From the IMG/VR virus record IMGVR_UViG_2529292720_000015: DNA of 38,578 bases; one strand, given 5' to 3'. Positions 22,021 to 38,109 of the stretch are shown one piece after another. The stretch is from a virus (taxonomy: Duplodnaviria > Heunggongvirae > Uroviricota > Caudoviricetes). Under the pieces are notes generated by a model that did not search any database, was not told the DNA's origin, and saw only the letters and a program-made list of their open reading frames with translations. The translations under genes were made by a program, and so were the position numbers. Position 1 is the first letter of the stretch. Every line of letters starts with the position of its first letter.

Positions 22021-22362
22021 TTATCTTACCTTGATGCCTGATGCCGTCAGATGTTTACGACAGTCCTGAATACCTTCGTTATAACCCGCATCGTAGAAGC
22101 TATCCGGCTTTGCCTTCAGCGCAGGAAGCGTAACGCTGGTAGCTCTTCGTTCGGCCAGAACACCTGCCTGAAAGAGTGTCCACATCAACTGAACTGCTGA
22201 ATCACAGTAAGTAACATCTTCACTGTACAATTCTCGTTCAATCCTGATGCCAAGTTGAGCCTTCATTGATGCGCCAATATTACCTTTGACCTGCAACGAC
22301 AGGTCTGGGTACCTCTGTTCCATGAAGCTTTCAAATCTGTTGCGAACGCTGATCAGAGCCAT
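22021..22362 (-). CDS. hypothetical protein downstream of Q
   Basis: 113-aa ORF 31 nt downstream of the Q stop, with normal GC. No recognisable motif. Confidence 0.45.
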   Translation of the reverse strand: MALISVRNRFESFMEQRYPDLSLQVKGNIGASMKAQLGIRIERELYSEDVTYCDSAVQLMWTLFQAGVLAERRATSVTLPALKAKPDSFYDAGYNEGIQDCRKHLTASGIKVR

Positions 22363-22393
22363 CTGGTTCCCTTACGTGATTGATTGCTGGATA

Positions 22394-22816
22394 TTATGCC
22401 GCCGAGCAGCTCCTACGCAAAGTCCTGATAGCCTGAGGCTTTGACTGAACCGACTGATCCATTTCGAGCACCACATCCAGCATGGCTAAGCAACCGTCAA
22501 TAAATCCCTCTGCCGCCTGAAGCCTCTTCAGAACGTGGGTGTGAGATACGCCGAGCTTCTCACCCATCGCCCTCACGGGCATGGCCTGGACGTAATGCCA
22601 CTCAAGGAGCGTGCACAGATACGGATCTTTTTTCTTCAAGCAGCTCATAGCGGAGTTGATGATAAGACCGTCATTGTCACTGCATTTCAGCCTTCCAGAC
22701 TGCGTCGCGGGTAGCAGATTCTTAAACCCGGCTGCAACAGGAGGAAAGTAGACGCTACCACCTTCACTCGCTGCCCAGCCACCCCAGCGCTCTAAAACCT
22801 GTTGAATATTACGCAT
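22394..22816 (-). CDS. Q: late-gene antitermination protein Q (Q82-type family)
   Basis: 140-aa ORF with Cys-rich and basic segments, upstream of the late leader region and lysis genes. Family assignment is from recalled similarity. Confidence 0.65.
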   Translation of the reverse strand: MRNIQQVLERWGGWAASEGGSVYFPPVAAGFKNLLPATQSGRLKCSDNDGLIINSAMSCLKKKDPYLCTLLEWHYVQAMPVRAMGEKLGVSHTHVLKRLQAAEGFIDGCLAMLDVVLEMDQSVQSKPQAIRTLRRSCSAA

Positions 22817-22946
22817 AGCTCTGACCTCTACGTTTTGCTACGAAAAAATTTTCTGAGAACTACGTCTGTATATCCGTGGGTGTGGATAACGCAGTTCCGA
22901 TCCGCATATTGCATGTATCAACATGCAAAAAGTTGCTAATGCGGAG

Positions 22947-23136
22947 TGGAACCACCTGCCCCCACCTGGAACCACCTTTTCCTAACCTTTCCCTCAATCG
23001 ACTTATATATATATATGGGGTTTCTAGTAGAAAGGCGGTTCCAGTGGTTCCAGTAGTTCCGCCCCGCTTGCCACAAGGTCTGCAAGGTGGAACCACCTTC
23101 TCTTCTAGGTGGTTCCGCGTGGTTCCAGCGGTTCCC
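22947..23136. repeat. iteron-like repeat cluster, candidate origin of replication
   Basis: TGGAACCACC / GGTTCC(A) occurs about 9 times in both orientations within roughly 190 bp (22947-22956, 22967-22976, 23037-23060, 23087-23098, 23109-23136), next to a (TA)6-7 tract at 23004-23016. The cluster overlaps the 3' end of the primase gene. Confidence 0.45.
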
Positions 23137-25291
23137 AAACCTTGCATTTTTTCCCCCCAATTCGCCTTTGGGCACGCTTATACCCGCAATTTTGCAAAAC
23201 ATTACTAATTCGCATTTCTTCGCGTTTTCCGATGCGGTCAGGATTTAGCCCAATCGCATCACGCAAAACATCACTTGCGCGTAAAAATTCGCAATTTCGC
23301 GGAAGTTCATTAGTCATCAGGTCTGGCGTGTCGAGCCATTTCTCTACCGTTTCAAGCCAAGCATCCTTGATGGTGTACTGTTCATGGACACTCGCTGCCA
23401 GTTGTTCAGCCTCACGGAACTGGATACCCCCCAGACGCTGAAACACCTCACGAGCCTCAGCCCAAAGTAAAAGGAGATCTCTTTTTATCGCTTTCACGTC
23501 GACTTTCGACACTTCCACGGGGAGCCAGCGACGGTTACCAGTCTTGTCCGCAAGGAATTCGTCCTCATTGGTGGTACCAACGAACACCAGGCGACGAGGA
23601 AACTGGGTGGCGAACTCCCGGTATTTCGGGATCCAGTTTTCGTGAGTACGTGTCACAAACGCTTTGATTGACTCCAGCTCTTTGGTATTAAGTCCGCGCA
23701 GTTCACCAATCTCTGCCACCAGCCGACCACGCATTTTTCGAGCGAGATCATCGTCTTTTTCGGCAAAAGAGATTTCAGTAAAAAACGCAGGATCAGGGCT
23801 CAGTGCCTCCACTCCGGAAGACTTACCGCAGCCCTGCGGACCAACGAGGATCGGCACCATATCCGCTTTGATGCCTGGCTCCAGTACTCGCCCCGCCAAC
23901 GCGGTCCACATGTACATAGACACCGCACGGGTATAAGGCGTGTTGGCTGTACCGAAGTGCGTATGGTAGAAACATTCGATGCGCGGCACGCCATCCCACT
24001 CCAGCCCGTTCAGCCAGGTGATCGCTGAATCGAATGGTTGTTCATCGGCTGCAAGTAACACCACATCGCGAATAAGTTCACGACCAACAGGTTTAAATCC
24101 CCGCTTTTCCATCGTGATGCGCAGGCGCGCATAATCCGCATCGGTGAATGCTCGCCATTGTCCGGATCCTGCAGGGGCAAACATGATTTCGTCGCGGAAC
24201 TGGTCAAAGCGAATATCGATGTCCACAAAATCAGGGCGTACTACTGCTTTGGCTGCGTTGCTGATGGTTGCCTCGATACGCCCCCATTTATCACGCTCGA
24301 AAGCAGGCAGCGGTAAAGGTTCCGCCACTTCGGTGCTGGTCAGATCTTCGAAATCGTCGTTGCGGATCCCGATGGCATTAAGGAAATCTCCGTCATCACG
24401 ATGCGCACAACTGGCATGCAGGCATTTAAAATGCCCCTGCTCAAAGCCCGCGGTTCCCGCAGGAAAATAAGCTGTGCTTGTTGGATCGCCCCCGCTACTG
24501 TGGCCGTCTTCAAACGGACAGCGGATATATCGTTCACCATTTGCGCCATCCAGCAGCGTCCAGCCATTGGCATCAAGATATTCAGCTGTATCATCCGTCG
24601 CGCCGGGCGTGAATGCTGATCGGTCGCGCATCTTCGTGTTGCCCGCTTCGGTGGTTACCGACACAGGGAGTTGTTCAGCCAGGCGCTGCCACAGCGTTTC
24701 AAGCTGCTCACCAGTAATAGCCGGAGGTTCATCCGGCAAACCACCGTCCCATTCAATACGCGCGCCGCTGCTGTGCGTACCACAGGCAACGAACTGCTGC
24801 CCGTTCGCCAGCAACTCGATAATGCCCATATCCCCCGCCAGGCGATGGATACGCTTACGGAAATCACCATCAACGGCCAGCAGATACAGACACTTATTAC
24901 TGTTTGCTCGCCAGCGTCGCGGCGGCAACTCCCCCAGAAGTTGCACAAGCGTTTTGCGAATATCTGCCTGAATGTCTTCATCTTCGCTATCGCAGTCCAG
25001 CGCCAGCCAGCCATGGCCTGTACGCACGCAGATGCCATAATCCGGTTCATTCGACCAGCGGGCAAAATCATGCTCAGTAACAACATACCCGGTCCATTGA
25101 GCAATACCGGTGACCTGGCGGTCCCGGTTATAGCGACTTGGCGTCTTGCCCAGCGCTTTCAGTTTACTATCAGGGGATATGGTCGCACCGGGGTTACATA
25201 CAACTGGGAGAAGATGCTCAGTTCTCCCCAATACCAGGTCGAAATGAAACCACTCATCAGGCGTAGCTCCCCATGGTTTGCTATCGGACAT
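23105..25291 (-). CDS. DNA primase (prim-pol N-terminal domain plus VirE/D5-like P-loop NTPase)
   Basis: 728-aa ORF with an N-terminal primase-polymerase-like region, a CxxC/H zinc-binding-like segment (HFKCLHASCAHRD) and a Walker A motif (GPQGCGKSS). Confidence 0.75.
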   Translation of the reverse strand: MSDSKPWGATPDEWFHFDLVLGRTEHLLPVVCNPGATISPDSKLKALGKTPSRYNRDRQVTGIAQWTGYVVTEHDFARWSNEPDYGICVRTGHGWLALDCDSEDEDIQADIRKTLVQLLGELPPRRWRANSNKCLYLLAVDGDFRKRIHRLAGDMGIIELLANGQQFVACGTHSSGARIEWDGGLPDEPPAITGEQLETLWQRLAEQLPVSVTTEAGNTKMRDRSAFTPGATDDTAEYLDANGWTLLDGANGERYIRCPFEDGHSSGGDPTSTAYFPAGTAGFEQGHFKCLHASCAHRDDGDFLNAIGIRNDDFEDLTSTEVAEPLPLPAFERDKWGRIEATISNAAKAVVRPDFVDIDIRFDQFRDEIMFAPAGSGQWRAFTDADYARLRITMEKRGFKPVGRELIRDVVLLAADEQPFDSAITWLNGLEWDGVPRIECFYHTHFGTANTPYTRAVSMYMWTALAGRVLEPGIKADMVPILVGPQGCGKSSGVEALSPDPAFFTEISFAEKDDDLARKMRGRLVAEIGELRGLNTKELESIKAFVTRTHENWIPKYREFATQFPRRLVFVGTTNEDEFLADKTGNRRWLPVEVSKVDVKAIKRDLLLLWAEAREVFQRLGGIQFREAEQLAASVHEQYTIKDAWLETVEKWLDTPDLMTNELPRNCEFLRASDVLRDAIGLNPDRIGKREEMRISNVLQNCGYKRAQRRIGGKKCKVWEPLEPRGTT

Positions 25292-25294
25292 GGG

Positions 25295-25525
25295 TTAAGC
25301 CTTTTTATCGTTTTGTGAGCCATACAACAGCCAATTAGGGTCGCAATCCAATGCTATAGACATTTCAAGAAGATAACGTGGCCGAGCAATAACACCACTT
25401 TCAATTCTGTTTATTGCCTGCTGGCTCACTCCTGTGAGCTCAGCCAACGTAACTTGCGTCATTTTGAGTTCTTTACGTCGTTCTTTTACTCGGGTCGCTA
25501 AGGTCATTGCTTTCACCTCATACAA
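25295..25525 (-). CDS. Cro-like HTH (XRE family) transcriptional regulator
   Basis: 76-aa ORF with an HTH motif (QVTLAELTGVSQQAINRIESG). It is divergent from the CI-like gene and is the first gene of the leftward operon. Confidence 0.75.
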   Translation of the reverse strand: MYEVKAMTLATRVKERRKELKMTQVTLAELTGVSQQAINRIESGVIARPRYLLEMSIALDCDPNWLLYGSQNDKKA

Positions 25526-25627
25526 TTTTAGTGGTATTTAGCAACAACAAACGAGGTTTGTCAAATACAACAAAAATTGTTTTTAATGTGGGTATACACA
25601 TTAATACAACCCAGAAGGACTAATCCC
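25526..25627. promoter_or_regulatory. divergent promoter/operator region of the immunity switch
   Basis: 102-bp AT-rich intergenic region between the divergent HTH regulator genes. Individual -35/-10 elements and operators are not confidently resolved. Confidence 0.4.
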
Positions 25628-26251
25628 ATGTCTCTCGCAGCCCGTTTTAAAGCACGTCGTTTGGAATTAGGAATGACTCAAGTGGAAGTAGCGAATTCTG
25701 CAGGGGTTAGCCAACAATCCATAGAATCCATCGAAAGTGGACGAACCAGAAAGCCGCGCAATCTTCTGGATCTGGCTAAGGCCTTGAAATGTAGCCCAGA
25801 CTGGCTACTGAACGGTAAAAATATTATGCCTCTCGCGGAGATAAGTACCAGACGCATACCTATATTAAGTTACGTTCAGGCAGGAGAGCTTACAGAAGCA
25901 AGAGACATAACAGATCTGACAGGGGAATTTGAATATATTTTGGCAGACTCTGACATTCCAGAAACATGCTTCGCATTACGTATTGATGGCGACAGCATGC
26001 AACCAGAGTTTAAAGAAGGAGACATTGTTATCATCGATCCTGATCTATGTCCTGCACCAGGGGAGTTTGTTGTCGCCAAAAACGACGGTCACGAAGCTAC
26101 ATTTAAAAAATACCGTCCATTAGGAATCGGCATCGACGACTTTGAATTAATCCCCCTAAATCCTGATTACCCTATTTTTCGTAGTGCAGATATGAACTTA
26201 CAGATCATAGGTGTAATGATCGAACACCGTATTTACCGCCGTAAACGTTAG
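25628..26251 (+). CDS. CI/LexA-like repressor with S24 peptidase domain
   Basis: The ORF track starts at 25577, but the likely start is the Met at MSLAARFKARR (25628), preceded by GAAGGA. The product has an N-terminal HTH (TQVEVANSAGVSQQSIESIESG) and a C-terminal S24 autopeptidase-like domain with Ser (DGDSM) and Lys (KKY) motifs. Confidence 0.8.
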   Translation: MSLAARFKARRLELGMTQVEVANSAGVSQQSIESIESGRTRKPRNLLDLAKALKCSPDWLLNGKNIMPLAEISTRRIPILSYVQAGELTEARDITDLTGEFEYILADSDIPETCFALRIDGDSMQPEFKEGDIVIIDPDLCPAPGEFVVAKNDGHEATFKKYRPLGIGIDDFELIPLNPDYPIFRSADMNLQIIGVMIEHRIYRRKR

Positions 26252-27935: not shown

Positions 27936-29237
27936 ATGCCAGACGTTCATGCACAACTTTCTCCATCATCAGCGCATCGATGGATGCGCTGCCCAGGAAG
28001 TCTGGCGCTGGAGGCCACACAACCGGATAAAGAAACAACTTTTGCAATCGAGGGCACTGCAGCGCACGCGCTTGCTGAAAAAGTTCTACGAAACAGGCAA
28101 AGCCACCCGGAACACTACGCCGGATGCAATGTTTCTATGTTTCTCGGCTCATACCCCCTTCGCGAAAATCCTGATGATACATCTGGCCCACAGGTGGATG
28201 ATGAAATGGTCGAAGCCGTTGGCCGGTATGTTGATACGGTCTGGACTCTTGCACAGAATAATGAACTATTGGTTGAACAACGTGTTGATTTCTCACATAT
28301 AACGGGGGTGGAAGAATCTTTCGGAACTGCCGACGGCATAATCATCGCTGGTAACGAATTACAAATCCACGACCTGAAATATGGCAAAGGCGTCCGCATT
28401 GATGCAGAACAAAATGAGCAACTACAACTGTATGCTCTGGGTGCGCTCGAACAATTCAGCATGCTGTATGACTTTGAGACTGTAAGATTATTTATTCACC
28501 AGCCAAGGCTCAACCACGTTTCAGAATGGTCGTTAACCGTGCAGGAACTTCAGTCTTTCGGTAAACGAGCACAGGAGGCCGCAACCAGTGCGATCCTTGT
28601 TCTCAATATTGCTGAATGCGAAGGCATTGAGACACTACCGCTGGAAAACTTCATACCTGGAGAAAAACAGTGCCGCTTCTGTAAAGCAAAAGCTATTTGC
28701 ACTGCCCAGAAAATGCAGCATTTACAAACAGCGGCCAGCGACTTTGAAGATCTGACAAAGCCTGTCAGCGAAATAATCACCAATGCCAGCGCACGTGTAC
28801 CTCTGTTAACCATTGAGCAGCTTGCGGAGATCTATAGCCAGGCCGACTTTATTGAGTCCTGGCTAAAGGCAGTACGGGACCGGGTTCACAATGAACTCAA
28901 TGCCGGACATCCGGTACCGGGGTTTAAACTGGTAACAGGAAAACAAGGTAACCGGGCCTGGAGTGATGAAGAGGCAGCTCGCGCACTTCTGAAGGACCAG
29001 TTCAGGTACAAAACTGAAGAAGTATTCGACTTTAAACTTATTAGCCCCACAAAAGCCGAAAAACTTATCAAAAAGGCCAGTCCGCGCCGTTGGTCAAAAG
29101 TCGAGGCACTGATAACACGAGCTGATGGTAAACCCACCATCGTTCCCGAGTCAGACCCACGCCCCGCACTCAATATCAACCCTGTAAATGATTTCGACGA
29201 CGTATCCGACGATACGCTAACCGCAGACCTCATCTGA
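27936..29237 (+). CDS. DUF2800-family PD-(D/E)XK (Cas4-like) nuclease
   Basis: The N-terminus [15 protein letters not shown] is the hallmark of the DUF2800 family as I recall it, and a C-terminal Cys cluster ([10 protein letters not shown]) is present. This is its typical position ahead of DUF2815 and the polymerase. Confidence 0.75.
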
Positions 29238-29252
29238 TTTAAGGAAATACCC

Positions 29253-29696
29253 ATGAAACTGAAGCTGAACAATGTTCGTCTGGCCTTCCCGTCTCTGTTT
29301 GAAGCTAAAACTGTAAACGGCGAAGGCGATCCACGTTTCTCCGCAGTATTTTTAATGTCACCCAAACACCCACAACTGGAAGAAATCCGTAAAGCTATGA
29401 AGCAGGTAGCGAAGGAAAAATGGGGAGAGAAGTGGGAGCCCATTTATAACCAACTGGAGAAAAAACTCAATCTGTGCCTGCATGATGGTGATGAAAAAGC
29501 AGAGTATGAAGGCTTCCCCGGCAATTTCTTCCTGAATGCTGCTAACAAAGCGCGCCCAGCTGTTCTTGATCGCGATCGTTCGCCACTTATTCAGGCTGAT
29601 GGACGTCCCTATGCAGGGTGCTATGTAAACGCCGTTATCGATATCTGGGCACAGGACAATAATTTCGGTAAACGCATTAATGCCTCACTCGGCTGA
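29253..29696 (+). CDS. DUF2815-family protein (SSB-like), apparently C-terminally truncated by an in-frame TGA
   Basis: The N-terminus MKLKLNNVRLAFPSLFEAK is typical of DUF2815. After the TGA at 29694-29696 the frame continues for 34 codons (VQFLRDGDAFAVGGVASADDFDDISEGADAEALI) to a TAA at 29799. Confidence 0.75.
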   Translation: MKLKLNNVRLAFPSLFEAKTVNGEGDPRFSAVFLMSPKHPQLEEIRKAMKQVAKEKWGEKWEPIYNQLEKKLNLCLHDGDEKAEYEGFPGNFFLNAANKARPAVLDRDRSPLIQADGRPYAGCYVNAVIDIWAQDNNFGKRINASLG

Positions 29697-29853
29697 GTCC
29701 AGTTCCTGCGAGACGGCGATGCATTCGCTGTCGGCGGAGTGGCAAGCGCTGACGATTTCGACGATATCAGCGAAGGTGCTGATGCTGAAGCACTGATTTA
29801 ACCCTACTTCATAGACGCCCGGTTAAATACCGGGCTGCTGATTAGGCGCATAA

Positions 29854-30483
29854 TCACTCAGGAATCTTAATCTTCCTCAATTCTTTATTTAGTTCACAGA
29901 TCTTCTTCTTAGACGGGAAAGTATCATACATCCAAAAACCAACAGTCTCTAAAACTATTGTCATAACCATATACACAAGATAATTTAAAAGGCCTTCATT
30001 TTGCCCTATGGAAATAATGCAGATAATAGAAAAAAGGATAAACAGCACAAAACACAGAAAGGAAAACAGACGACTAATAATAAATAAAAAACCTGAAAAA
30101 TTAACATTGATGAAAAACACTCCGTTATCTTTCTCTATATAATTCTGAAGCTTAATCACCTGATTTATATACTGTCTTTTTTCTAATCTATTGCAAATGT
30201 AAATAACATCACTTCGGTTATAAGAAGATTGCAATTTCAGCGCATCACGAATAATTTTATCATTTATTCTTTTTTCTATGGCACTCTTATCCTCCTTATC
30301 CAGATAACGTTCATACTTAACTAAATATAAAATTAACTTCTTGACATATTTAGGCTCTTTATACTTATAATTAAAAATGATCTTTCTTATCCAGACTCCC
30401 ATAACAATCAAACATGAAAAAATATATCCAGCTATTTTCTCCAGATGCTCTGTATGGTCAATCAAGTATTGGATCATATGCAT
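29854..30483 (-). CDS. hypothetical membrane protein (about 3 TM helices), AT-rich accessory gene
   Basis: 209-aa ORF, very low GC, on the strand opposite the flanking replication genes. It has hydrophobic helices at roughly residues 17-33, 134-158 and 169-190, with a Lys/Glu-rich soluble region between. Confidence 0.6.
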   Translation of the reverse strand: MHMIQYLIDHTEHLEKIAGYIFSCLIVMGVWIRKIIFNYKYKEPKYVKKLILYLVKYERYLDKEDKSAIEKRINDKIIRDALKLQSSYNRSDVIYICNRLEKRQYINQVIKLQNYIEKDNGVFFINVNFSGFLFIISRLFSFLCFVLFILFSIICIISIGQNEGLLNYLVYMVMTIVLETVGFWMYDTFPSKKKICELNKELRKIKIPE

Positions 30484-30529
30484 AATTAATCTTTTAATCA
30501 GTTAATAGAATAAAAACCAAGGTAAACAC

Positions 30530-32593
30530 ATGTCCAATATACTATGGGGCGACCTGGAAACCTATTGCGAAATCCCTATTACGAACGGTACCCATGCGTA
30601 TGCCGAAGGCGTTGAAGTGATGCTGTTCGCATGGGCTATCAACGACGGGCCAGTAAACGTATGGGATATCACTGCCGGTGGTGGTATTCCACACGGCTTA
30701 TACGAAGCAATCGCAGCCCCTGAAACCCTGCTTTATTTTCATAACTCTCACTTCGACCGCACCGTCCTGCGTTATGCAATGCCGCGACTGGCACCGCCAG
30801 TCGAACGTTGGCGCGACACGATGGTGCAGGCGCTGGCGCACGGTCTCCCGGGGTCTCTGGGGGAACTCTGCGAAGTACTAGGCGTCCCGCAAGACAAAGC
30901 GAAGGACAAAGAAGGTAAAGCGCTGATCCAGCTGTTCTGTAAGCCACGCCCGAAAAACAGCAAACTGCGCCGGGCCACCAGCAAAACCCACACGGAAGAA
31001 TGGCGGCGCTTTGTTGCTTACGCCGGACTGGATATCGAGGCAATGCGCGAAGTCTATAAACGTCTGCCGAAGTGGAATTATCAGGGGACAGAACTGGCGC
31101 TCTGGCATCGTGATCAGCAGATCAATGACCGGGGCGTCTGCATGGACGTGGAACTCGCACGCGCTGCGATCGACGCGGTAGACCAGGAACAAAAGCGCCT
31201 GGCAAAGCGTACACAGGAAATGACTGATGGCGAAGTGCAGGCAGCCACACAACGAGACGCGTTGATTAAGCACATTGTTGAATCCTACGGTGTGGAGCTA
31301 CCAGACATGCAACGCAGTACTCTGGAACGTCGTATTGCCGACCCCGATTTACCATCTGCCGTGAAAGAACTGCTGGCTATCCGCCTGCAGGCCAGTACTA
31401 CCAGCACCAGTAAATACAAGGCACTGATGAAAGGCGTAAGCCACGACGGGCGCTTACGCGGTACGCTACAGTTCTGCGGGGCGTCACGTACCGGTCGTTG
31501 GGCCGGACGGCTATTCCAGCCCCAGAACCTTCCCCGCCCTTCACTAAAACAGGAACAAATAGACGAAGGCATCGAAGCACTGAAAGCCGGATGTGCAGAC
31601 CTGCTGTTTGACAATATCATGGAACTAACCAGTTCAGCGTTACGTGGCTGCATTATCGCGCCAACAGGCAAAAAGCTGGTGGTAAGTGACTTGTCGAACA
31701 TTGAAGGCCGTATGCTGGCATGGCTGGCGGGAGAAGAATGGAAACTGAATGCATTCAGAGAGTACGACGCCGGAACGGGTCCGGACTTATATAAACTGGC
31801 GTATGCAAAAGCTTTCGATATTGCACCAGATGATGTTGATAAACACATGCGTCAGATCGGTAAAGTCATGGAACTCGGTCTGGGTTATGGAGGAGGTGTA
31901 TCGGCTTTCATCACTTTTGCTCTGGTTTACGGTCTCGATCTCGACGGGCTGGCGAACGCCGCACTGCCAAACATTCCCCGCGATGTTATCCGCGAGGCGA
32001 AAAGCTGGTACGACGAATCGGTTAAACGTAAATCGACCTACGGGCTTTCTGAACGGGTATTTATCGCCTGCGACTCACTTAAACGTCTCTGGCGCCGGGC
32101 GCATCCCGCGACCTGTGATTTCTGGTACGAACTGGAGTGCACCGTCCGCACAGCAATCGCCACACCGCAAAAAACATTGTATTGCGGTTATCTTAAAATC
32201 CGCCGCGATGGCGCGTGGCTGCGCATACAGCTACCATCCGGACGCGCTGTATGCTACCCGTCTCCGGTTATCGAACAAGGGAATATCACCTACATGGGTG
32301 TTAACTCTTATTCGCGTAAATGGCAACGACTCAAAACCTACGGCGGAAAGCTGGTGGAGAACGTCACCCAGGCGGCCGCCCGCGACGTTCTGGCCGGAAA
32401 CATGCCGCTTATCGAAGATGCCGGTTACAGCATTGTGCTGACGGTACACGACGAGGTGATCACCGAATCACCTGACACAGAAGATTTCAACGATAAAGCG
32501 CTTTCCGCGCTTCTCTCCACTAACCCCGAATGGGCGCCAGATATCCCACTGAACGCTGGCGGTTTTGAGGCGTACCACTACCGTAAGGATTAA
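30530..32593 (+). CDS. DNA polymerase, family A, with N-terminal 3'-5' exonuclease domain
   Basis: 687-aa ORF with an N-terminal DxE exonuclease motif (WGDLETY). The C-terminal region contains HDE (TVHDEVITE), consistent with the polymerase motif C region. Typical partner of DUF2800/DUF2815. Confidence 0.85.
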
Positions 32594-32598
32594 CTCCT

Positions 32599-32814
32599 AT
32601 GTCATTTAAATACCGGGACAATCCACTTTATTACAGGGCTGCAAGGGAGGCTTTGCGACTTGAACAATCCGGCGAATATGACCGGGCAGCGAAGGTCTGG
32701 GCAAAAGCCAACCGCGAATCACATCACGAACTGAATCAGGAATGGAGTGAACGCAGATCTGATTTTTGCCTGATGCAGAATATGCGTGAAAAGCGTAAGG
32801 CGGTCGAAGAATGA
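32599..32814 (+). CDS. small regulator-like protein (possibly ANR/PerC-like), hypothetical
   Basis: 71-aa ORF. The pattern YYRAAREALRLEQSGEYDRAAKVWAKA resembles small ANR-family proteins from memory; this is uncertain. Confidence 0.35.
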   Translation: MSFKYRDNPLYYRAAREALRLEQSGEYDRAAKVWAKANRESHHELNQEWSERRSDFCLMQNMREKRKAVEE

Positions 32815-33110
32815 TCGTTTACGTTGCCGGGCCGATGAGCGGTTACGAGCAATTTAACCGCCCGGCTTTTCATTCCGCAGCAAAGAGGCTAACGGACAAG
32901 GGATATGTTGTGCTTAACCCCGCAACTTTACCCAATGGTTTGACACAGGCTCAGTATATGGACATCTGCCTCGCAATGCTTCGCTGTGCCGATACGATTT
33001 ATATGCTCAAAGAGTGGGAGTACTCTGCTGGCGCACGTGCAGAAAACGCGTTGGCAGAGAAACTGGAATTGAATGTGCTTTTTGAAGAGTGGGATTCAGA
33101 TGGCCTATGA
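32811..33110 (+). CDS. DUF4406-like / nucleoside 2-deoxyribosyltransferase-like protein
   Basis: 99-aa ORF whose N-terminus MIVYVAGPMSG matches the VYxAGP motif of this family. ATGA overlap with the upstream gene. Confidence 0.55.
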   Translation: MIVYVAGPMSGYEQFNRPAFHSAAKRLTDKGYVVLNPATLPNGLTQAQYMDICLAMLRCADTIYMLKEWEYSAGARAENALAEKLELNVLFEEWDSDGL

Positions 33111-33369
33111 ACGTGAAAGCCTTATCGAAAAGCACCTCGTCGCTGAAGTGAAAAAAGCTGGCGGAGTGGCCTTTAAGTTTGTATCTCCCGGTCACCGCTC
33201 GGTACCGGATCGCATTGTCCTGCTACCAGGTGGTCGTATCGTTTTCGTTGAATGTAAATCTCCCGGCAAGCCACCACGGCCTGACCAATTGCGCGAACAT
33301 GAACGTCTGCGAAAACTGGGCTTTACCGTAGTGGTGCTGGATAGCAAGAACCTAGAGAGGATATTATAA
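33073..33369 (+). CDS. VRR-NUC domain nuclease
   Basis: 98-aa ORF with PD-(D/E)XK-like residues (PDRIVLLPGGRIVFVECKSPG), matching the VRR-NUC pattern. Usual position beside the SNF2 helicase in this replication module type. Confidence 0.75.
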   Translation: MCFLKSGIQMAYERESLIEKHLVAEVKKAGGVAFKFVSPGHRSVPDRIVLLPGGRIVFVECKSPGKPPRPDQLREHERLRKLGFTVVVLDSKNLERIL

Positions 33370-33373
33370 AAAT

Positions 33374-33943
33374 TTAGTCAATGCCTTTTTGATTGAACTT
33401 CTGATTCTCCAGTATGCTTTGCAGCTCAATATTATCATTTGCAGCGGTTTGTTTATGCTCATGATATTTTTCTTGCGTATAATTTCTTTCTCTTAGTTTC
33501 TGTGCGTAATTATTAGAAATAATATCATGACGATCTTGTAATACTTGTTCAAGTTGACTTTTAAAGTCCTCTATCTTTTCATTAGAAATAACATTTTTGT
33601 ACTTTTCAATATCACGGCGAAGTTCTTTTTCTTTCTTCTTATTAATGCTTAATAACTGTCGATTAACGCTACCTAAGGACCATTTAAACCCAATCGACTT
33701 TATCCAATGCGCCAGAAACATAGCGCAACTGGGAAGCATTAATAAAAGAAATGGCTTTATTGTATTTAAATCAGAACCAATATACGGAAAACAACCGTCC
33801 CACGAGGACACCAGTAATGTTAAAAAACCAGTGATGCCACCAGCAGCAACATTAGAAATCAGAGGGACTTTTTCGTAGCTATCAAGTTTAGAAGCGCTAC
33901 TCAAACGTCCCTCCTTTGACTGATCTTCCAGCACGAATGGCAT
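33374..33943 (-). CDS. hypothetical membrane protein (2 TM helices plus C-terminal coiled-coil), accessory cassette gene 3
   Basis: AT-rich ORF. The ATG at 33943 has no SD, whereas an alternative TTG at 33904 is preceded by AAGGAGG at 5-nt spacing and lies 2 nt after the upstream stop, giving about 176 aa. TM helices are GGITGFLTLLVSSW and FLLLMLPSCAMFLAHWI, followed by a Lys/Glu/Gln-rich predicted coiled coil. Confidence 0.6.
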   Translation of the reverse strand: MPFVLEDQSKEGRLSSASKLDSYEKVPLISNVAAGGITGFLTLLVSSWDGCFPYIGSDLNTIKPFLLLMLPSCAMFLAHWIKSIGFKWSLGSVNRQLLSINKKKEKELRRDIEKYKNVISNEKIEDFKSQLEQVLQDRHDIISNNYAQKLRERNYTQEKYHEHKQTAANDNIELQSILENQKFNQKGID

Positions 33944-34145
33944 TCATTGCAATTTTGTAAAATTCATCATCAGAAGAGACATCAACGACATCGCGACGGA
34001 CAACTCCTTCTGAGTCAACACATTCAAGAACAAGATGATGTTTAGGCATAAGCGCAAAGCGTAACCGGTCAAACCCCATCTTAAGAACCCAATATAGTAC
34101 GGGAAGCAGGCTAAAAAAAGCCAGCCAAAAAGCAAAAGCAATCAT
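33897..34145 (-). CDS. hypothetical small single-TM protein, accessory cassette gene 2
   Basis: 82-aa ORF with GGAGG 5 nt upstream of the ATG. N-terminal TM helix (IAFAFWLAFFSLLPVLYWVL) and an acidic soluble C-terminal part. Confidence 0.6.
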   Translation of the reverse strand: MIAFAFWLAFFSLLPVLYWVLKMGFDRLRFALMPKHHLVLECVDSEGVVRRDVVDVSSDDEFYKIAMNAIRAGRSVKGGTFE

Positions 34146-34168
34146 AGCCCCCTCCCCATGTGAATCTA

Positions 34169-35047
34169 CTATAAGATGCCGTGTACTTTAACAACTATGT
34201 ACGTTTTGTCCAGCGAATTCAAGTTCTCACGGACGAGCAAATAAACGCAGTAAGCATCACTAAAAACACCAGGTTCTCTTCCCGTACTAACACGTTGTAA
34301 GAACTCAGTATCTTCTATAGACACGCTGATTGTGTCATCGCCATAGTTGACTCGCCAGCCTGTGTTTTTATCCTTATGAATAGTCAAAAATGTGATTAGA
34401 GCCTCTTCAATCACCCTTTCAGACAAGGACTGCACTACAGGAACGCGCCTATATCTGAACGGTTCAATATTATCTTCGTGCACCTTAATCAGCTCAACCC
34501 CCTGTTGAGTTGAAATTTTAAGCGATTCGTATCCTTCCTTTTGCAAAGGATTATGAATTAACTTCGATAAGGATTTGCGTATGCTTGGTGAGGCAAGTAA
34601 AGGCCGGAAATATGACGGGGCTATAATTTCCTCACCATCATCCATAACTATTTTACAGTCTCCTTCCGCTGTTAAAGTCAACCGTTTTATTTGCCTACCA
34701 TTGATCTGACGAATTAAGTCAATGAGAGTATTTCCTGCTGCGAGTGCAGTTGTACCTCCAAGCCCAATAATGCTTAATATATTCAAATGGTCAAGTGGAT
34801 TTTGAATAACATCAATCAAATACTCAAATGAGCCTTCCTTAAAAGGCTCAACCTCAACATTAATACACTCACTAGTGCCATTGACAACCAAATTAACTTC
34901 TTTAAGCAAGTTGTTTAGTCCATTCAATGACTCAGTTAAAACATCCAAATCTATTTTATGATCTGCTAGTGCGGGACCATCATATTTAACAACTAATTTA
35001 TCAGTAATATTTTCTTCTTGCTGGACATCTGTATAAGCTGAGGTCAT
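34169..35047 (-). CDS. hypothetical soluble protein (292 aa), accessory cassette gene 1
   Basis: AT-rich ORF with AAGGAA 5 nt upstream of the ATG, on the strand opposite the replication genes. No Walker A, HEPN, PD-(D/E)XK or other catalytic motif was recognised. Confidence 0.65.
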   Translation of the reverse strand: MTSAYTDVQQEENITDKLVVKYDGPALADHKIDLDVLTESLNGLNNLLKEVNLVVNGTSECINVEVEPFKEGSFEYLIDVIQNPLDHLNILSIIGLGGTTALAAGNTLIDLIRQINGRQIKRLTLTAEGDCKIVMDDGEEIIAPSYFRPLLASPSIRKSLSKLIHNPLQKEGYESLKISTQQGVELIKVHEDNIEPFRYRRVPVVQSLSERVIEEALITFLTIHKDKNTGWRVNYGDDTISVSIEDTEFLQRVSTGREPGVFSDAYCVYLLVRENLNSLDKTYIVVKVHGIL

Positions 35048-35114
35048 AACTGTTCCTTTCGAAATAAATAATTAAGCTATTACTACATAAGTTCATTCAT
35101 GGAGATACAATACC

Positions 35115-36512
35115 ATGGACTATGCTATATTTTCACCTCACCCCTACCAAGATCTCATCATCAATCATCAAATCGACATTATGCGCTGCAACATCTGGGC
35201 AGGTATGGGAATGGGTAAAACCGTGGCAACGCTCACTGCGCTGGAAGATCTTTTTATGGCAGGGGCAGAAACACGCCCCGCACTGGTCCTCGCGCCGCTA
35301 CGTGTTGCAGCAAACACCTGGCCGGATGAAGCAGTGAAGTGGGGGCATTTGCGCAATATCGAGGTGCAGCCGATTGTTGGTAATGCCAAAGCGCGCTCTA
35401 CGGCGCTGGCGAACAGCAACGCAAGCGTGTTCACCATCAACTACGATAACCTTGTCTGGCTGGTTGAAGAATTGGGAGAACGATGGCCGTTCGGTATTGT
35501 CATTCCAGATGAAAGCACCCGGCTAAAATCCTTCCGGCTGCGAGGTGGTGGTAAGCGCGCGGCGGCACTGGGCAAAGTGGCGCATAAGTATGTCCGGCGC
35601 TGGATAAATCTCACCGGTACGCCAGCACCGAACGGCCTGGTAGATTTGTGGGGACAATCGTGGTTTGTGGACCAAGGGCAACGTCTCGGGCGCACTTACG
35701 GTGCGTTTACCTCACGCTGGTTCAACTCGATACAGTTTCCGGGACAGAGCTGGACTAAACTGGAGCCTTTTGCTCACTCACAGGGTGAAATACAGCGAGC
35801 ATTAGCCGATGTGACCCTCTCGCTAGATGCGGCCGACTGGTTCGATATCAAAGACCCCATCCATAACGTAATCCGCGTGGATATGCCGCCGAAGGCCCGT
35901 CAGCAGTATCGTGAAATGGAAAAGGAAATGTTCCTCGAGCTGAATGGCGAAGGCATCGAAGCACCGAACGCCGCGGCAAAGACACTGAAGTGTCTTCAAA
36001 TCGCCAGTGGCGCAGTATACACAGACGACACCGGAAGTTGGTCAGAACTGCATGACACCAAACTACAGGCGCTGGACAGCATACTGACCGAAGCAGCTGG
36101 CGCACCTGTGCTGGTTGCTTATCACTGGAAACACGATCTTGAACGCTTGCTTAAAGCATTCCCTCGCGGTCGTCACCTCGACCAGGATCCACAGACACTG
36201 CGCGACTGGAATTCCGGAAAGATTCCTGTTCTCTTTGCACACCCAGCCAGCGCGGGCCACGGCCTGAACATGCAAGACGGCGGAAATATACTGGTATTTT
36301 TCTCACACTGGTGGGACCTGGAGCAATATCAGCAAATTATTGAACGTATCGGCCCCACCAGGCAGATACAGGCCGGACACAATCGTCCGGTATTTATTCA
36401 CCACATTATTGCTGCCGACACTATGGACGAAATGGTGATGGAGCGGCGCAACTCAAAACGAACAGTGCAGGACATCCTGCTCGATGCCATGAAAAAGAGA
36501 GGTATAGCATGA
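35115..36512 (+). CDS. SNF2-family (DEAD/DEAH-like) helicase
   Basis: 465-aa ORF with Walker A (GMGMGKT) and a DExx-type motif (IPDEST), plus a C-terminal helicase domain. Confidence 0.8.
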   Translation: MDYAIFSPHPYQDLIINHQIDIMRCNIWAGMGMGKTVATLTALEDLFMAGAETRPALVLAPLRVAANTWPDEAVKWGHLRNIEVQPIVGNAKARSTALANSNASVFTINYDNLVWLVEELGERWPFGIVIPDESTRLKSFRLRGGGKRAAALGKVAHKYVRRWINLTGTPAPNGLVDLWGQSWFVDQGQRLGRTYGAFTSRWFNSIQFPGQSWTKLEPFAHSQGEIQRALADVTLSLDAADWFDIKDPIHNVIRVDMPPKARQQYREMEKEMFLELNGEGIEAPNAAAKTLKCLQIASGAVYTDDTGSWSELHDTKLQALDSILTEAAGAPVLVAYHWKHDLERLLKAFPRGRHLDQDPQTLRDWNSGKIPVLFAHPASAGHGLNMQDGGNILVFFSHWWDLEQYQQIIERIGPTRQIQAGHNRPVFIHHIIAADTMDEMVMERRNSKRTVQDILLDAMKKRGIA

Positions 36513-36709
36513 GCGAGAAACCCGACGATTTACTCACCCCGGATGAAGTATGCCAAAAGTTAGGTATTACACAGAAAACGCTATGTGAGTGGAATATTAA
36601 GCATCGTCATCGGGCTATCCTGGCACCAATTCGTTTCAGTGCAAAAGTAGTTCGTTATGAGCGCCGCAATGTCGACGCTTTTATTCAAAAGTGTCGCAGC
36701 CGGTATTAA
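36509..36709 (+). CDS. AlpA/Xis-like DNA-binding protein (putative excisionase or regulator)
   Basis: 66-aa ORF whose motif LLTPDEVCQKLGITQKTLCEW is typical of AlpA-family HTH proteins. It sits next to, and convergent with, the integrase gene, with an ATGA overlap to the helicase gene. Confidence 0.55.
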   Translation: MSEKPDDLLTPDEVCQKLGITQKTLCEWNIKHRHRAILAPIRFSAKVVRYERRNVDAFIQKCRSRY

Positions 36710-38109
36710 CCTCGCCGCCGTAGCAATGCCACCTGCGCAAGTATGCTCCGCTCGTGAGCCTCGAAAGCTTCGCGCTTTAACGCAATCTCTTCCTGCAAAA
36801 TCTCATCAGAAAAGTCGTAATGTTCTGCCATCGGGTCATCTGACTTGCTGGAGTGGTGAAGGCAAAGGAGGCTGATTTCCCTTCGGTCTGATCGGGAATA
36901 GCCTCTTTCCTTCATCAAGGCAATAACATTGCTCTTAAGGAATTTACGGCACATCGTATTAAATGCACCGTCTTTCCCTTTAACAGTCCCATCATGTTTT
37001 ATTCCTTTTACAGCCCCATCCGGGCTGTATGTTTTCACTAGCTTATCCAGTGATCGTTTTGAAAATGGCTGCATTGGATCACGCGGCTGCAAAAATACAT
37101 AATCCCTGTTGCACTCAGGAACTGAATCACGCCATGCTTTCTGCTCGTCGATAATCCGCCGGATCTCCGGCGTTATTGGCAGGCGGAAAGCCTTTTGTGT
37201 TTTCATAGCCCCTCGCATGCCGATAACCCCTTCAGGATAAACAATTTCGCCAGTCTCCTCGTGAACGTAGTCCCAGCGCAGGTTATGGACATTAATCGGA
37301 CGAACGCCGGTGATGATCATGAAGCGAACAGCATTCTTCTGGTGTACAGAGGTGCAGGCGGCAACATTGAGCCAGAGCCGGGCGATTGACTCAATATCGG
37401 TAAAAAGCCGTGTGGGGGTGGGTTTCTGTACGCGGGAGGAAACATAATCATCTGGCAGACTGGCAGCAACATTGCGACCGTTACAAAGAGTAGGTGCGCA
37501 GAACTTCCAGAACCGACGGAGCTCGGCAAACAACTCCAGGGCGTTATTGTTCGAGCGAGTGGCGATCCACTCGTCCAGCACTTCCACCAGCCGATTGTAT
37601 GTTACGTCGCTGAACACCTCACGCTCGCCGAACGTTGCTTTAATCCGGTCGATACGCACCCCGTAGGTTGTGAAACTGTCCGGGCTCAGCTTCTGCCGGG
37701 CGACTTTGGCTTTGAGGTCATCCCGGTACATTTCCAGCGCTGCATGTACGGACTCTGCCCGCAAGCCACCGTCAGCCATACCTAGCGCTTTTTCGCGCGC
37801 CAGCTGGATAGCGAGCTCCGGCCACTCGCCGAGCTTTTTACCCTTGAGGCCCATCTTTTTTGGAAACTCGGCGTAAAATGTAACCTTACCGGCTTTGCTG
37901 AAATCGATACGGAGATAGTTCTCTTTTTCGTATTTGGAACGGCGAGCCACGCCGGAAGCAGCGAGGATGATTTTGGCGGCAGCAACACAGATTTTCATGT
38001 GTGCGCTGGTATAGGGGGGTTTACAGGCGTCCCATTTTTCAGATGCGGCTAAAACATCGTCATTATTGGGGCTATCCGGATTATGTGTTACAGTGCGCGG
38101 CATTCTCAA
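36706..38109 (-). CDS. int: tyrosine-type integrase
   Basis: 467-aa ORF. The C-terminal domain carries recombinase boxes (ITGVRPINVHNLRWDYV with the conserved Arg, and LLCLHHSSKSDDPMAEHYDF with the His...Tyr). It lies at the prophage edge next to a chromosomal gene; the N-terminal start is uncertain. Confidence 0.7.
   Translation of the reverse strand: MRMPRTVTHNPDSPNNDDVLAASEKWDACKPPYTSAHMKICVAAAKIILAASGVARRSKYEKENYLRIDFSKAGKVTFYAEFPKKMGLKGKKLGEWPELAIQLAREKALGMADGGLRAESVHAALEMYRDDLKAKVARQKLSPDSFTTYGVRIDRIKATFGEREVFSDVTYNRLVEVLDEWIATRSNNNALELFAELRRFWKFCAPTLCNGRNVAASLPDDYVSSRVQKPTPTRLFTDIESIARLWLNVAACTSVHQKNAVRFMIITGVRPINVHNLRWDYVHEETGEIVYPEGVIGMRGAMKTQKAFRLPITPEIRRIIDEQKAWRDSVPECNRDYVFLQPRDPMQPFSKRSLDKLVKTYSPDGAVKGIKHDGTVKGKDGAFNTMCRKFLKSNVIALMKERGYSRSDRREISLLCLHHSSKSDDPMAEHYDFSDEILQEEIALKREAFEAHERSILAQVALLRRRG

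Follow-up and report, generated by a model that had tools for sequence, protein, structure and literature searches.

The alpha protein of satellite phage P4 carries a primase, an SF3 helicase and a C-terminal origin-binding winged helix in one polypeptide; it binds short iterons in both orientations, and P4 needs two separated sites, ori and crr. The alpha/ori/crr system was reportedly described by Ziegelin and Lanka in 1995 and by Yeo in 2002. The Rep protein of the SaPI elements is a self-loading helicase whose C-terminal winged helix recognises iterons of 5-6 nt (Qiao et al. 2022, PMC9371898). According to that paper, 6-12 short iterons are placed directly downstream of rep with an AT-rich centre (PMC7581432 says the same), at least two iterons lie on each side in opposite directions, and two hexamers are thought to load, one per side. 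For the SaPI1 Rep and SaPI5 PriRep replicons, both papers cite Ubeda 2007/2012. The PICIs of E. coli have the same origin layout, and a cloned pri-rep-ori segment of EcCICFT073 replicates; their Pri-Rep proteins are distantly related to the P4 alpha protein (Fillol-Salom 2018, PMC6092414). The archaeal plasmid pRN1 has as its origin a stem-loop of ~100 nt directly 3' of the replication gene, with a 21-nt stem and a 58-nt loop (Berkner et al. 2014, PMC4234260). The authors propose the stem-loop as a general origin form for replication proteins with prim-pol, SF3 and winged-helix domains, those of some phages included, and describe the pRN1 origin as one without iteron structure (PMC4234260).

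In the window, by which is meant the whole 38.6-kb stretch of phage DNA analysed (38,578 nucleotides), dense iterons in both orientations had been predicted at 22947-23136, as about nine copies in ~190 bp, at the 3' end of a primase gene and upstream of Q. Reading of the sequence and a k-mer scan of 200-bp stretches confirmed this array, with coordinates that agree and a number of sites that matches: eight exact copies, one with one mismatch and one degenerate copy, plus a (TA)6T tract (Table 1). The two genes also lie where they had been placed. Relative to the stop codon of the initiator gene the array extends from -28 to +160; its first sites fall in the last 10 codons of that gene and it ends 130 bp before Q. 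The copies of group A, with the consensus GGAACC(A/G)C, code for the initiator tail WEPLEPRGTT, and equivalent copies are found at equal offsets in relatives. Together, copies A3 and A4 make up an inverted repeat that straddles the stop codon, with perfect 10-bp arms and 8 bp between them, and a convergent pair with a spacer of 8-9 bp was present in the iteron types inspected. The middle copy of group C, which is degenerate in the window phage, is intact in most relatives.

Table 1. Positions in the window of the iteron array, its centre and the surrounding genes
Feature	Position	Strand	Remarks
Q antiterminator gene	22394..22816	-	Next gene downstream; Pfam Phage_antitermQ, E=5e-42
Iteron group C	22948..22977	+	Three tandem inverted 10-mers
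Group C copy 1	22948-22957	+	GGAACCACCT
Group C copy 2	22958-22967	+	GCCCCCACCT, degenerate
Group C copy 3	22968-22977	+	GGAACCACCT
Central gap	22978..23034		57 bp, between inverted triplets B and C; presumed melting region
(TA)6T alternating tract	23004..23016		Near dyad centre of groups B and C
Iteron group B	23035..23060	-	Three forward copies, exact 9-bp spacing
Group B copy 1	23060-23053	-	GGAACTAC
Group B copy 2	23051-23044	-	GGAACCAC
Group B copy 3	23042-23035	-	GGAACCGC
Iteron A4	23089..23098	+	Inverted copy, GGAACCACCT
Iteron group A	23107..23135	-	Three forward copies, 9-10-bp spacing
Group A copy A1	23135-23128	-	GGAACCGC
Group A copy A2	23126-23119	-	GGAACCAC
Group A copy A3	23116-23107	-	GGAACCACCT; final T is base 1 of the TAG stop, 23107-23105
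Initiator gene, 728 aa	23105..25291	-	Prim-pol, Cys/His cluster, VapE/SF3 helicase, C-terminal winged-helix-like domain
Cro-like HTH gene	25295-25525	-	
LexA/S24-type repressor gene	25577-26251	+	Divergent
Module beyond the repressor	27936-36512 (+) and 36706-38109 (-)		Includes nuclease, SSB, polymerase, helicase and integrase genes

The clustering is a local property. The hexamer GGAACC occurs 18 times in the window against 17 expected, so there is no overall enrichment, and eight of the 18 sit in 22948-23135. When any 6-mer was counted together with its reverse complement in all 200-bp stretches of the window, the maximum was 8 in the array and 4 elsewhere; for any 8-mer the corresponding maxima were 6 and 2. 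Exact GGAACCRC is found 11 times, eight of them inside the array, and there is no second GGAACCRC cluster in the 38.6-kb window.

The central gap has a local GC content of 0.38-0.40 against ~0.5 for the window, which makes it, at ~60% AT, mildly AT-rich. The (TA)6T tract is no more than ~5 bp away from the dyad centre between triplets B and C; among the 30-mers of the intergenic region it is the least stable, and in the whole window it stands at the 99.8th percentile. At the same position, the distant relatives L091, L090, L010 and L011 have other alternating purine-pyrimidine palindromes, which contain GC (GCGTGCGCGCGCACGC in L091, TTGCGCGCGCAA in L090 and CACATGTG plus (TA)n in L010). For this reason the conserved property is taken to be an alternating palindromic tract, which suggests that alternation or palindromy (a cruciform or Z-DNA propensity) is under selection at the centre, and not AT-richness alone. 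The alternating TA tract of the original prediction is therefore present, but is better called an alternating purine-pyrimidine palindrome at the dyad than simple AT-richness. As single-stranded DNA, B, the gap and C fold into a long stem with a loop of ~57 nt (dG -21.9 kcal/mol, z=-3.2), and none of 200 shuffles was as stable; for the whole array z was -3.5. The GC skew, both local and window-wide, follows gene orientation with no inflection at the array, and is uninformative because no inflection is expected in a 40-kb phage where skew behaves in this way.

The gene previously called a primase does contain a prim-pol domain, but the protein is a fused prim-pol, SF3-helicase and DNA-binding initiator, as judged from its domain, 7PDS and fold matches. 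An N-terminal archaeo-eukaryotic prim-pol is followed by a Cys/His cluster, a VapE/D5-type SF3 helicase and a C-terminal winged-helix-like domain at residues ~644-721. The initiator matched Pfam VapE-like_dom (E=4e-60), and its homologues in databases have the PF09250 Prim-Pol domain; an NCBIfam scan of the initiator matched no family. In a phmmer search of the PDB, residues 393-657 matched 7PDS, the structure of SaPI1 Rep with dsDNA (E=4e-33), which was the sole PDB sequence match; identity to SaPI1 Rep is ~22%. Foldseek aligned the AF2 model of the protein (mean pLDDT 74.6) with 7PDS over ~450 columns (E=1.8e-17), and matched its N-terminal third to the prim-pols of pRN1 ORF904 (1RNI/3M1M) and phage NrS-1. 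In the model residues 644-721 are arranged as H-H-H-strand-strand, a winged-helix topology, with a moderate model confidence (pLDDT about 70-83, around 75 overall), and residues 714-721 are the last strand of the domain. With the C-terminal domain alone Foldseek gave weak matches (best E=0.02), mostly to winged-helix proteins, which included PadR, Scc1, Stf76, TubR, RTP and FOXM1, and the C-terminal 91 residues had no meaningful sequence match in the PDB. With a domain-alone fold search this weak, the grounds for assigning a winged helix are the topology and the match of the whole protein to 7PDS.

For comparison, ~90 related loci were collected from E. coli genomes, GTDB genomes, IMG/VR contigs and the Yersinia phage YeP4, and the repeats in all of them were found by de novo repeat detection. 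A 601-bp query that covers the array finds an identical stretch (100%) in a prophage of E. coli ETEC-2264, and related prophages with 78-100% identity over this query are present in 141 of 5,426 complete E. coli genomes. Hosts of the family are E. coli (ETEC, O55:H7 and STEC strains among them), Salmonella, Enterobacter, Klebsiella, Yersinia and Pectobacterium. The same pattern was found in the ~90 loci: two to three forward copies and one reverse copy, three forward copies, a gap of ~57-67 bp which holds an alternating purine-pyrimidine palindrome, and three reverse copies. Offsets from the stop codon are near-constant in the relatives, at about -1, 9 and 29 for the first set, 64, 73 and 82 for the second and 149, 158 and 168 for the third. 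In the close family this layout holds for ten or more iteron sequences, and it is also found, with further iteron types, in relatives at only 50% identity (L090-L092), as well as in L010 and L011, where the protein is related in its N-terminal half only.

When six E. coli loci are aligned, all iteron copies of a locus are seen to switch together (GGAACCAC / GTACCAAC / GTTACCAC); outside the iterons, the outer flanks and the central gap with its TA tract are conserved, and the spacer between A and B diverges. A layout that stays fixed while the repeat is replaced wholesale is the mark of an array with many sites for a single sequence-specific protein. Phage YeP4, with an initiator 73% identical to that of the window, has the iteron AGACAACCT in the same arrangement. 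YeP4 is a podovirus and the window element a myovirus-type prophage; they have the array in common and their virion modules are unrelated, and the comparison indicates that the array follows the initiator gene rather than the virion module.

The C-terminal tail of the initiator is a by-product of the iterons, as can be seen from window positions 23105-23135 and from the stop codons of L005, L043, L008, L009 and L001. Where the iteron type contains TAA or TAG (GTAACC, GTAGCC, TAGACC, TAGACA) the protein ends at ~722-726 aa, and in the GTTACC type it ends at the same length just before the first iteron. In the types without a stop (GGAACC, GTACCA, GTCCCA) read-through of two to three iterons adds 6-9 residues. 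At L003 3295-5486 (E. coli Z1322HEC0009) the annotation gives the initiator gene as a frameshifted pseudogene, and the downstream array is intact, perhaps because a prophage in decay has left an orphaned candidate origin.

The initiators of the window and L002 are 98% identical and their iterons differ, with the protein differences concentrated in the last ~15 residues. From the five residues that follow an invariant Gly-Lys (KCKVW in the window, 715-719), the iteron type can be predicted in 96% of 81 loci. The seven residues in front of Gly-Lys are a far poorer predictor, as the first wing strand RVQRRVD occurs with six iteron types. The rest of the protein is uncoupled from iteron type: the GTACCA/MTRIF cassette is found on backbones whose identity to the window protein ranges from 99.4% down to 77%. 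At wing position 5 there is a Trp in seven of seven iteron types ending in ..CCAC and a Phe in three of three ending in ..CAAC. Two near-minimal pairs were found, AGACAACC/QQR(I/V)F against AGACCACC/QIRVW, and GTCCCAAC/KMRIF against GTCCCCAC/KQRIW, where the GTCCCCAC arrays are somewhat heterogeneous.

The wing residues are not encoded by the iterons: overlap in the window type is limited to the GG of the Trp codon, which falls in the first iteron, and other types have their iterons starting 9-12 nt further on. These codons lie 10-60 bp from the first iterons and less than 300 bp from the array and move with it as one cassette, and physical linkage alone could yield part of the covariation. 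Pure hitch-hiking is unlikely, however, because the first wing strand, only two codons away, does not track iteron type. The covariation of the last strand with iteron type argues that the C-terminal domain reads iteron DNA. Tentatively, the last wing strand may be a swappable, near one-to-one code for the iterons, where recombination at a precise boundary moves the strand together with ~200 bp of origin and at least ten orthogonal pairs exist in one enterobacterial phage lineage; we consider this a genuine possibility that falls somewhat short of being probable. Entries in the candidate code would be Trp/..CCAC and Phe/..CAAC at the end of the iteron, and KC/KS-GGAAC, MT-GTACC and QQ-AGACA. 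The pressure to switch would then probably be avoidance of cross-firing with co-resident prophages or of hijacking by satellites.

The complement of the ..CCAC iterons contains GTG, and the ..CAAC types are without it. GTG is linked to template recognition by the pRN1 prim-pol. A GTG motif is highlighted in the pRN1 origin stem-loop (PMC4234260).

Taken together, we consider that the array is very probably the phage origin of vegetative replication, served by a self-loading initiator-helicase of the SaPI/PICI type. The origin belongs to a known type and is not a new kind of system. That a replication origin made of initiator-binding iterons would lie beside the primase gene had been predicted, and is supported by the homology to SaPI Rep, the conserved layout and the wing covariation. 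From sequence, we infer the steps of binding, melting, double-hexamer loading and priming, and a role for group A, as follows. The 728-aa protein would bind the GGAACCAC iterons through its C-terminal winged-helix-like domain, with a specificity presumably set by the last wing beta-strand, KCKVW at residues 715-719. The inverted triplets B and C, with sites spaced by one helical turn, would place two oligomers, probably hexamers, head to head around the 57-bp gap. Melting would start at the alternating (TA)6T palindrome in the dyad centre, and the helicase rings could then load onto the single strands without a separate loader. Primers would be made by the initiator's own prim-pol domain and extended by the family-A DNA polymerase together with the Enc34-type SSB, both encoded by the phage beyond the repressor gene. 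Group A and the inverted A4 at the stop codon may be an auxiliary high-affinity or nucleation site.

Beyond the repressor, at 27936-36512 on the plus strand and 36706-38109 on the minus strand, are genes for a DUF2800/PD-(D/E)XK nuclease, an Enc34-type SSB, a family-A DNA polymerase, an SNF2-type helicase and an integrase. As the phage encodes its own polymerase, SSB, nuclease and helicase, a self-contained phage replisome is plausible. The phage brings most of its own replisome, unlike lambda. A dependence on DnaA was considered and rejected. The sequence TTATCCACA at 22881-22889 (-), 58 bp past the last iteron, is the only perfect match to the DnaA-box consensus TTATNCACA in the 38.6-kb window, with one match observed against a chance mean of 1.33. 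The box is kept in E. coli relatives (as TTATTCACG in two of them) and YeP4 has none at the equivalent place. DnaA was left out of the mechanism because the box occurs at chance frequency and is absent from YeP4. At the left end of the window, positions 1-1759 are 99.5% identical to IS66-family transposase genes of Stx2 phages, an insertion sequence beside the prophage tail genes.

All the genes round the array are on the minus strand, and past Q the order continues with the holin and lysis genes and then terminase. Scans of 22300-23600 for sigma-70 promoters and intrinsic terminators found none. As no Q promoter was detected, Q is probably co-transcribed through the array, and, given the empty terminator scan, the stop-codon hairpin is no classical terminator. 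Between the array and Q, at 22909-22928, there is a perfect 8-bp inverted repeat, TTGCATGT-ATCA-ACATGCAA; a T run precedes it on the gene strand, it is partly kept in relatives, and it is not terminator-like on either strand.

In iteron plasmids, initiator-binding repeats also act in autoregulation and copy-number control. The array could accordingly be mainly regulatory, with the initiator or another phage protein throttling or timing read-through into Q, or autoregulating, and with the origin elsewhere. Its position between the early genes and Q with no promoter- or terminator-like site between, and the probable dependence of Q expression on transcription through a protein-bound array, are in keeping with this. 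We nevertheless think it improbable, as the inverted triplets, central palindrome and one-turn spacing are the SaPI/PICI origin layout (PMC9371898, PMC6092414) and the 38.6-kb window has no other repeat cluster fit for an origin; a regulatory side-effect could also go along with an origin at the array without taking its place. Cro type and iteron type vary independently, and Cro was rejected as the iteron binder, one Cro cluster occurring with eight iteron types. The suggestion, made as an alternative in the original prediction, that the array binds a separate regulator is disfavoured by this independence and by the lack of a promoter- or terminator-like site between the primase gene and Q.

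A role at the RNA level, in which the hairpin at the primase stop or the long stem-loop would be an attenuator, a processing site or a stabiliser of mRNA, is highly improbable. At the stop codon A3 and A4 can indeed pair into a 10-bp stem without mismatch, closed by an 8-nt loop, and the z-scores of the B-gap-C and whole-array folds, given above, also speak for this role. Neither hairpin is followed by a T/U run, however, and no terminator was found in the scan; no Rfam family matches, as a scan of 22300-23700 gave only a sub-threshold chance hit inside Q, and the direct repeats of A and B with their 9-bp spacing have no part in a hairpin model. Apparent compensatory changes in the stems are automatic, because both arms are copies of one iteron. 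Least probable of all is a target of the small terminase or of a ParB-like protein, for packaging (pac/cos) or centromere-like partition, since the array, for all that short repeats clustered in both orientations are typical of such sites, travels with the initiator gene across unrelated virion modules (YeP4 and the myovirus-type prophage), occurs as a type in small plasmids without packaging genes, tracks the initiator C-terminus in sequence, and belongs to a phage with an integrase and no par genes among the ORFs scanned.

With the array read as the origin of replication, a candidate origin is located for a widespread family of enterobacterial temperate phages that replicates with its own prim-pol-helicase and not the lambda O/P system; no description of an origin for this family was found in the searchable literature. 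The matched variants of wing strand and iteron on near-identical backbones are a ready-made mutagenesis experiment, and the series could help both to explain how DNA is read by winged-helix initiators and to construct orthogonal replicons. The locus also links three systems that have been described separately, those of SaPI/PICI, pRN1 and the small VapE plasmids.

Other replication systems were compared and rejected. The P4 alpha protein resembles the window initiator in having primase, SF3 helicase and C-terminal winged helix in one polypeptide and iterons in both orientations. Its primase, however, is of the Toprim/DnaG type, while the window protein has an AEP prim-pol (PF09250 on homologues, and Foldseek), its iteron sequences are unrelated, and in place of an ori-crr pair there is a single cluster within the 38.6-kb window; the AEP prim-pol and the single cluster rule out the P4 class. 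A lambda-type O/P origin does not fit an early operon of cro, prim-pol-helicase and Q with no O or P homologue, where only the last 10 codons of the gene overlap iterons. The 'Eru' modules of Stx phages are also a different system: the Eru paper does not deal with iterons, VapE or origins, and Eru1 has an SF2 helicase and a Toprim protein.

Homologues of the helicase and CTD (38% identity, residues ~335-715) are encoded on small natural enterobacterial plasmids of 10-15 kb from E. coli, Serratia, Klebsiella and Yersinia. Both plasmids inspected have iterons in both orientations round an AT-rich stretch of ~100 bp directly after a VapE gene without a prim-pol domain: pLAO97 (L093 2695-2983) with the iteron GTTCCACCC and pYe4449-2 (L094 4252-4532) with the iteron GGTGTGACAG. 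These modules are apparently the plasmid version of the same type of replicon, and lend circumstantial support to the origin reading of the window array.

The closest likeness is to the SaPI Rep-ori system. The VapE/D5-type SF3 helicase core is homologous, and the window protein has a putative C-terminal DNA-binding domain to set beside that of Rep. As described in PMC9371898, the SaPI origin lies immediately 3' of the gene as in the window phage, its 6-12 iterons form two opposed sets round an easily melted centre as do the ten sites of the window, where B and C flank 57 bp, and its initiator-specific iteron sequences differ between elements. At the level of sequence, the array has every feature by which the SaPI origin is described there. 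It differs in belonging to a full-size temperate phage of Gram-negative hosts and not to a satellite, in the fusion of an AEP prim-pol domain to the initiator, in its iterons of 8-10 bp against 5-6 nt, in beginning inside the coding sequence with an extra convergent pair at the stop codon, and in its centre, which is an alternating purine-pyrimidine palindrome. The E. coli PICIs share a host species with the window phage and a layout that is alike by description, but are satellites without virion genes, whereas this phage has its own polymerase, SSB and virion genes. Proteins of the pRN1 ORF904 type (archaeal plasmid pRN1; phage BIP-1) have the same order of AEP prim-pol, SF3 helicase and C-terminal winged helix with a cis element just 3' of the replication gene, and B, the 57-nt gap and C fold in a similar way when single-stranded; the hosts are from different domains of life, and the stem in the window is visibly built of repeated candidate binding sites. 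The 'iteron origin' of SaPIs and the 'stem-loop origin' of pRN1 may be one architecture. What the comparison of loci adds is a fixed arrangement of ten sites, a set of at least ten interchangeable cassettes for specificity and, in a single strand of the wing, a candidate code for recognition.
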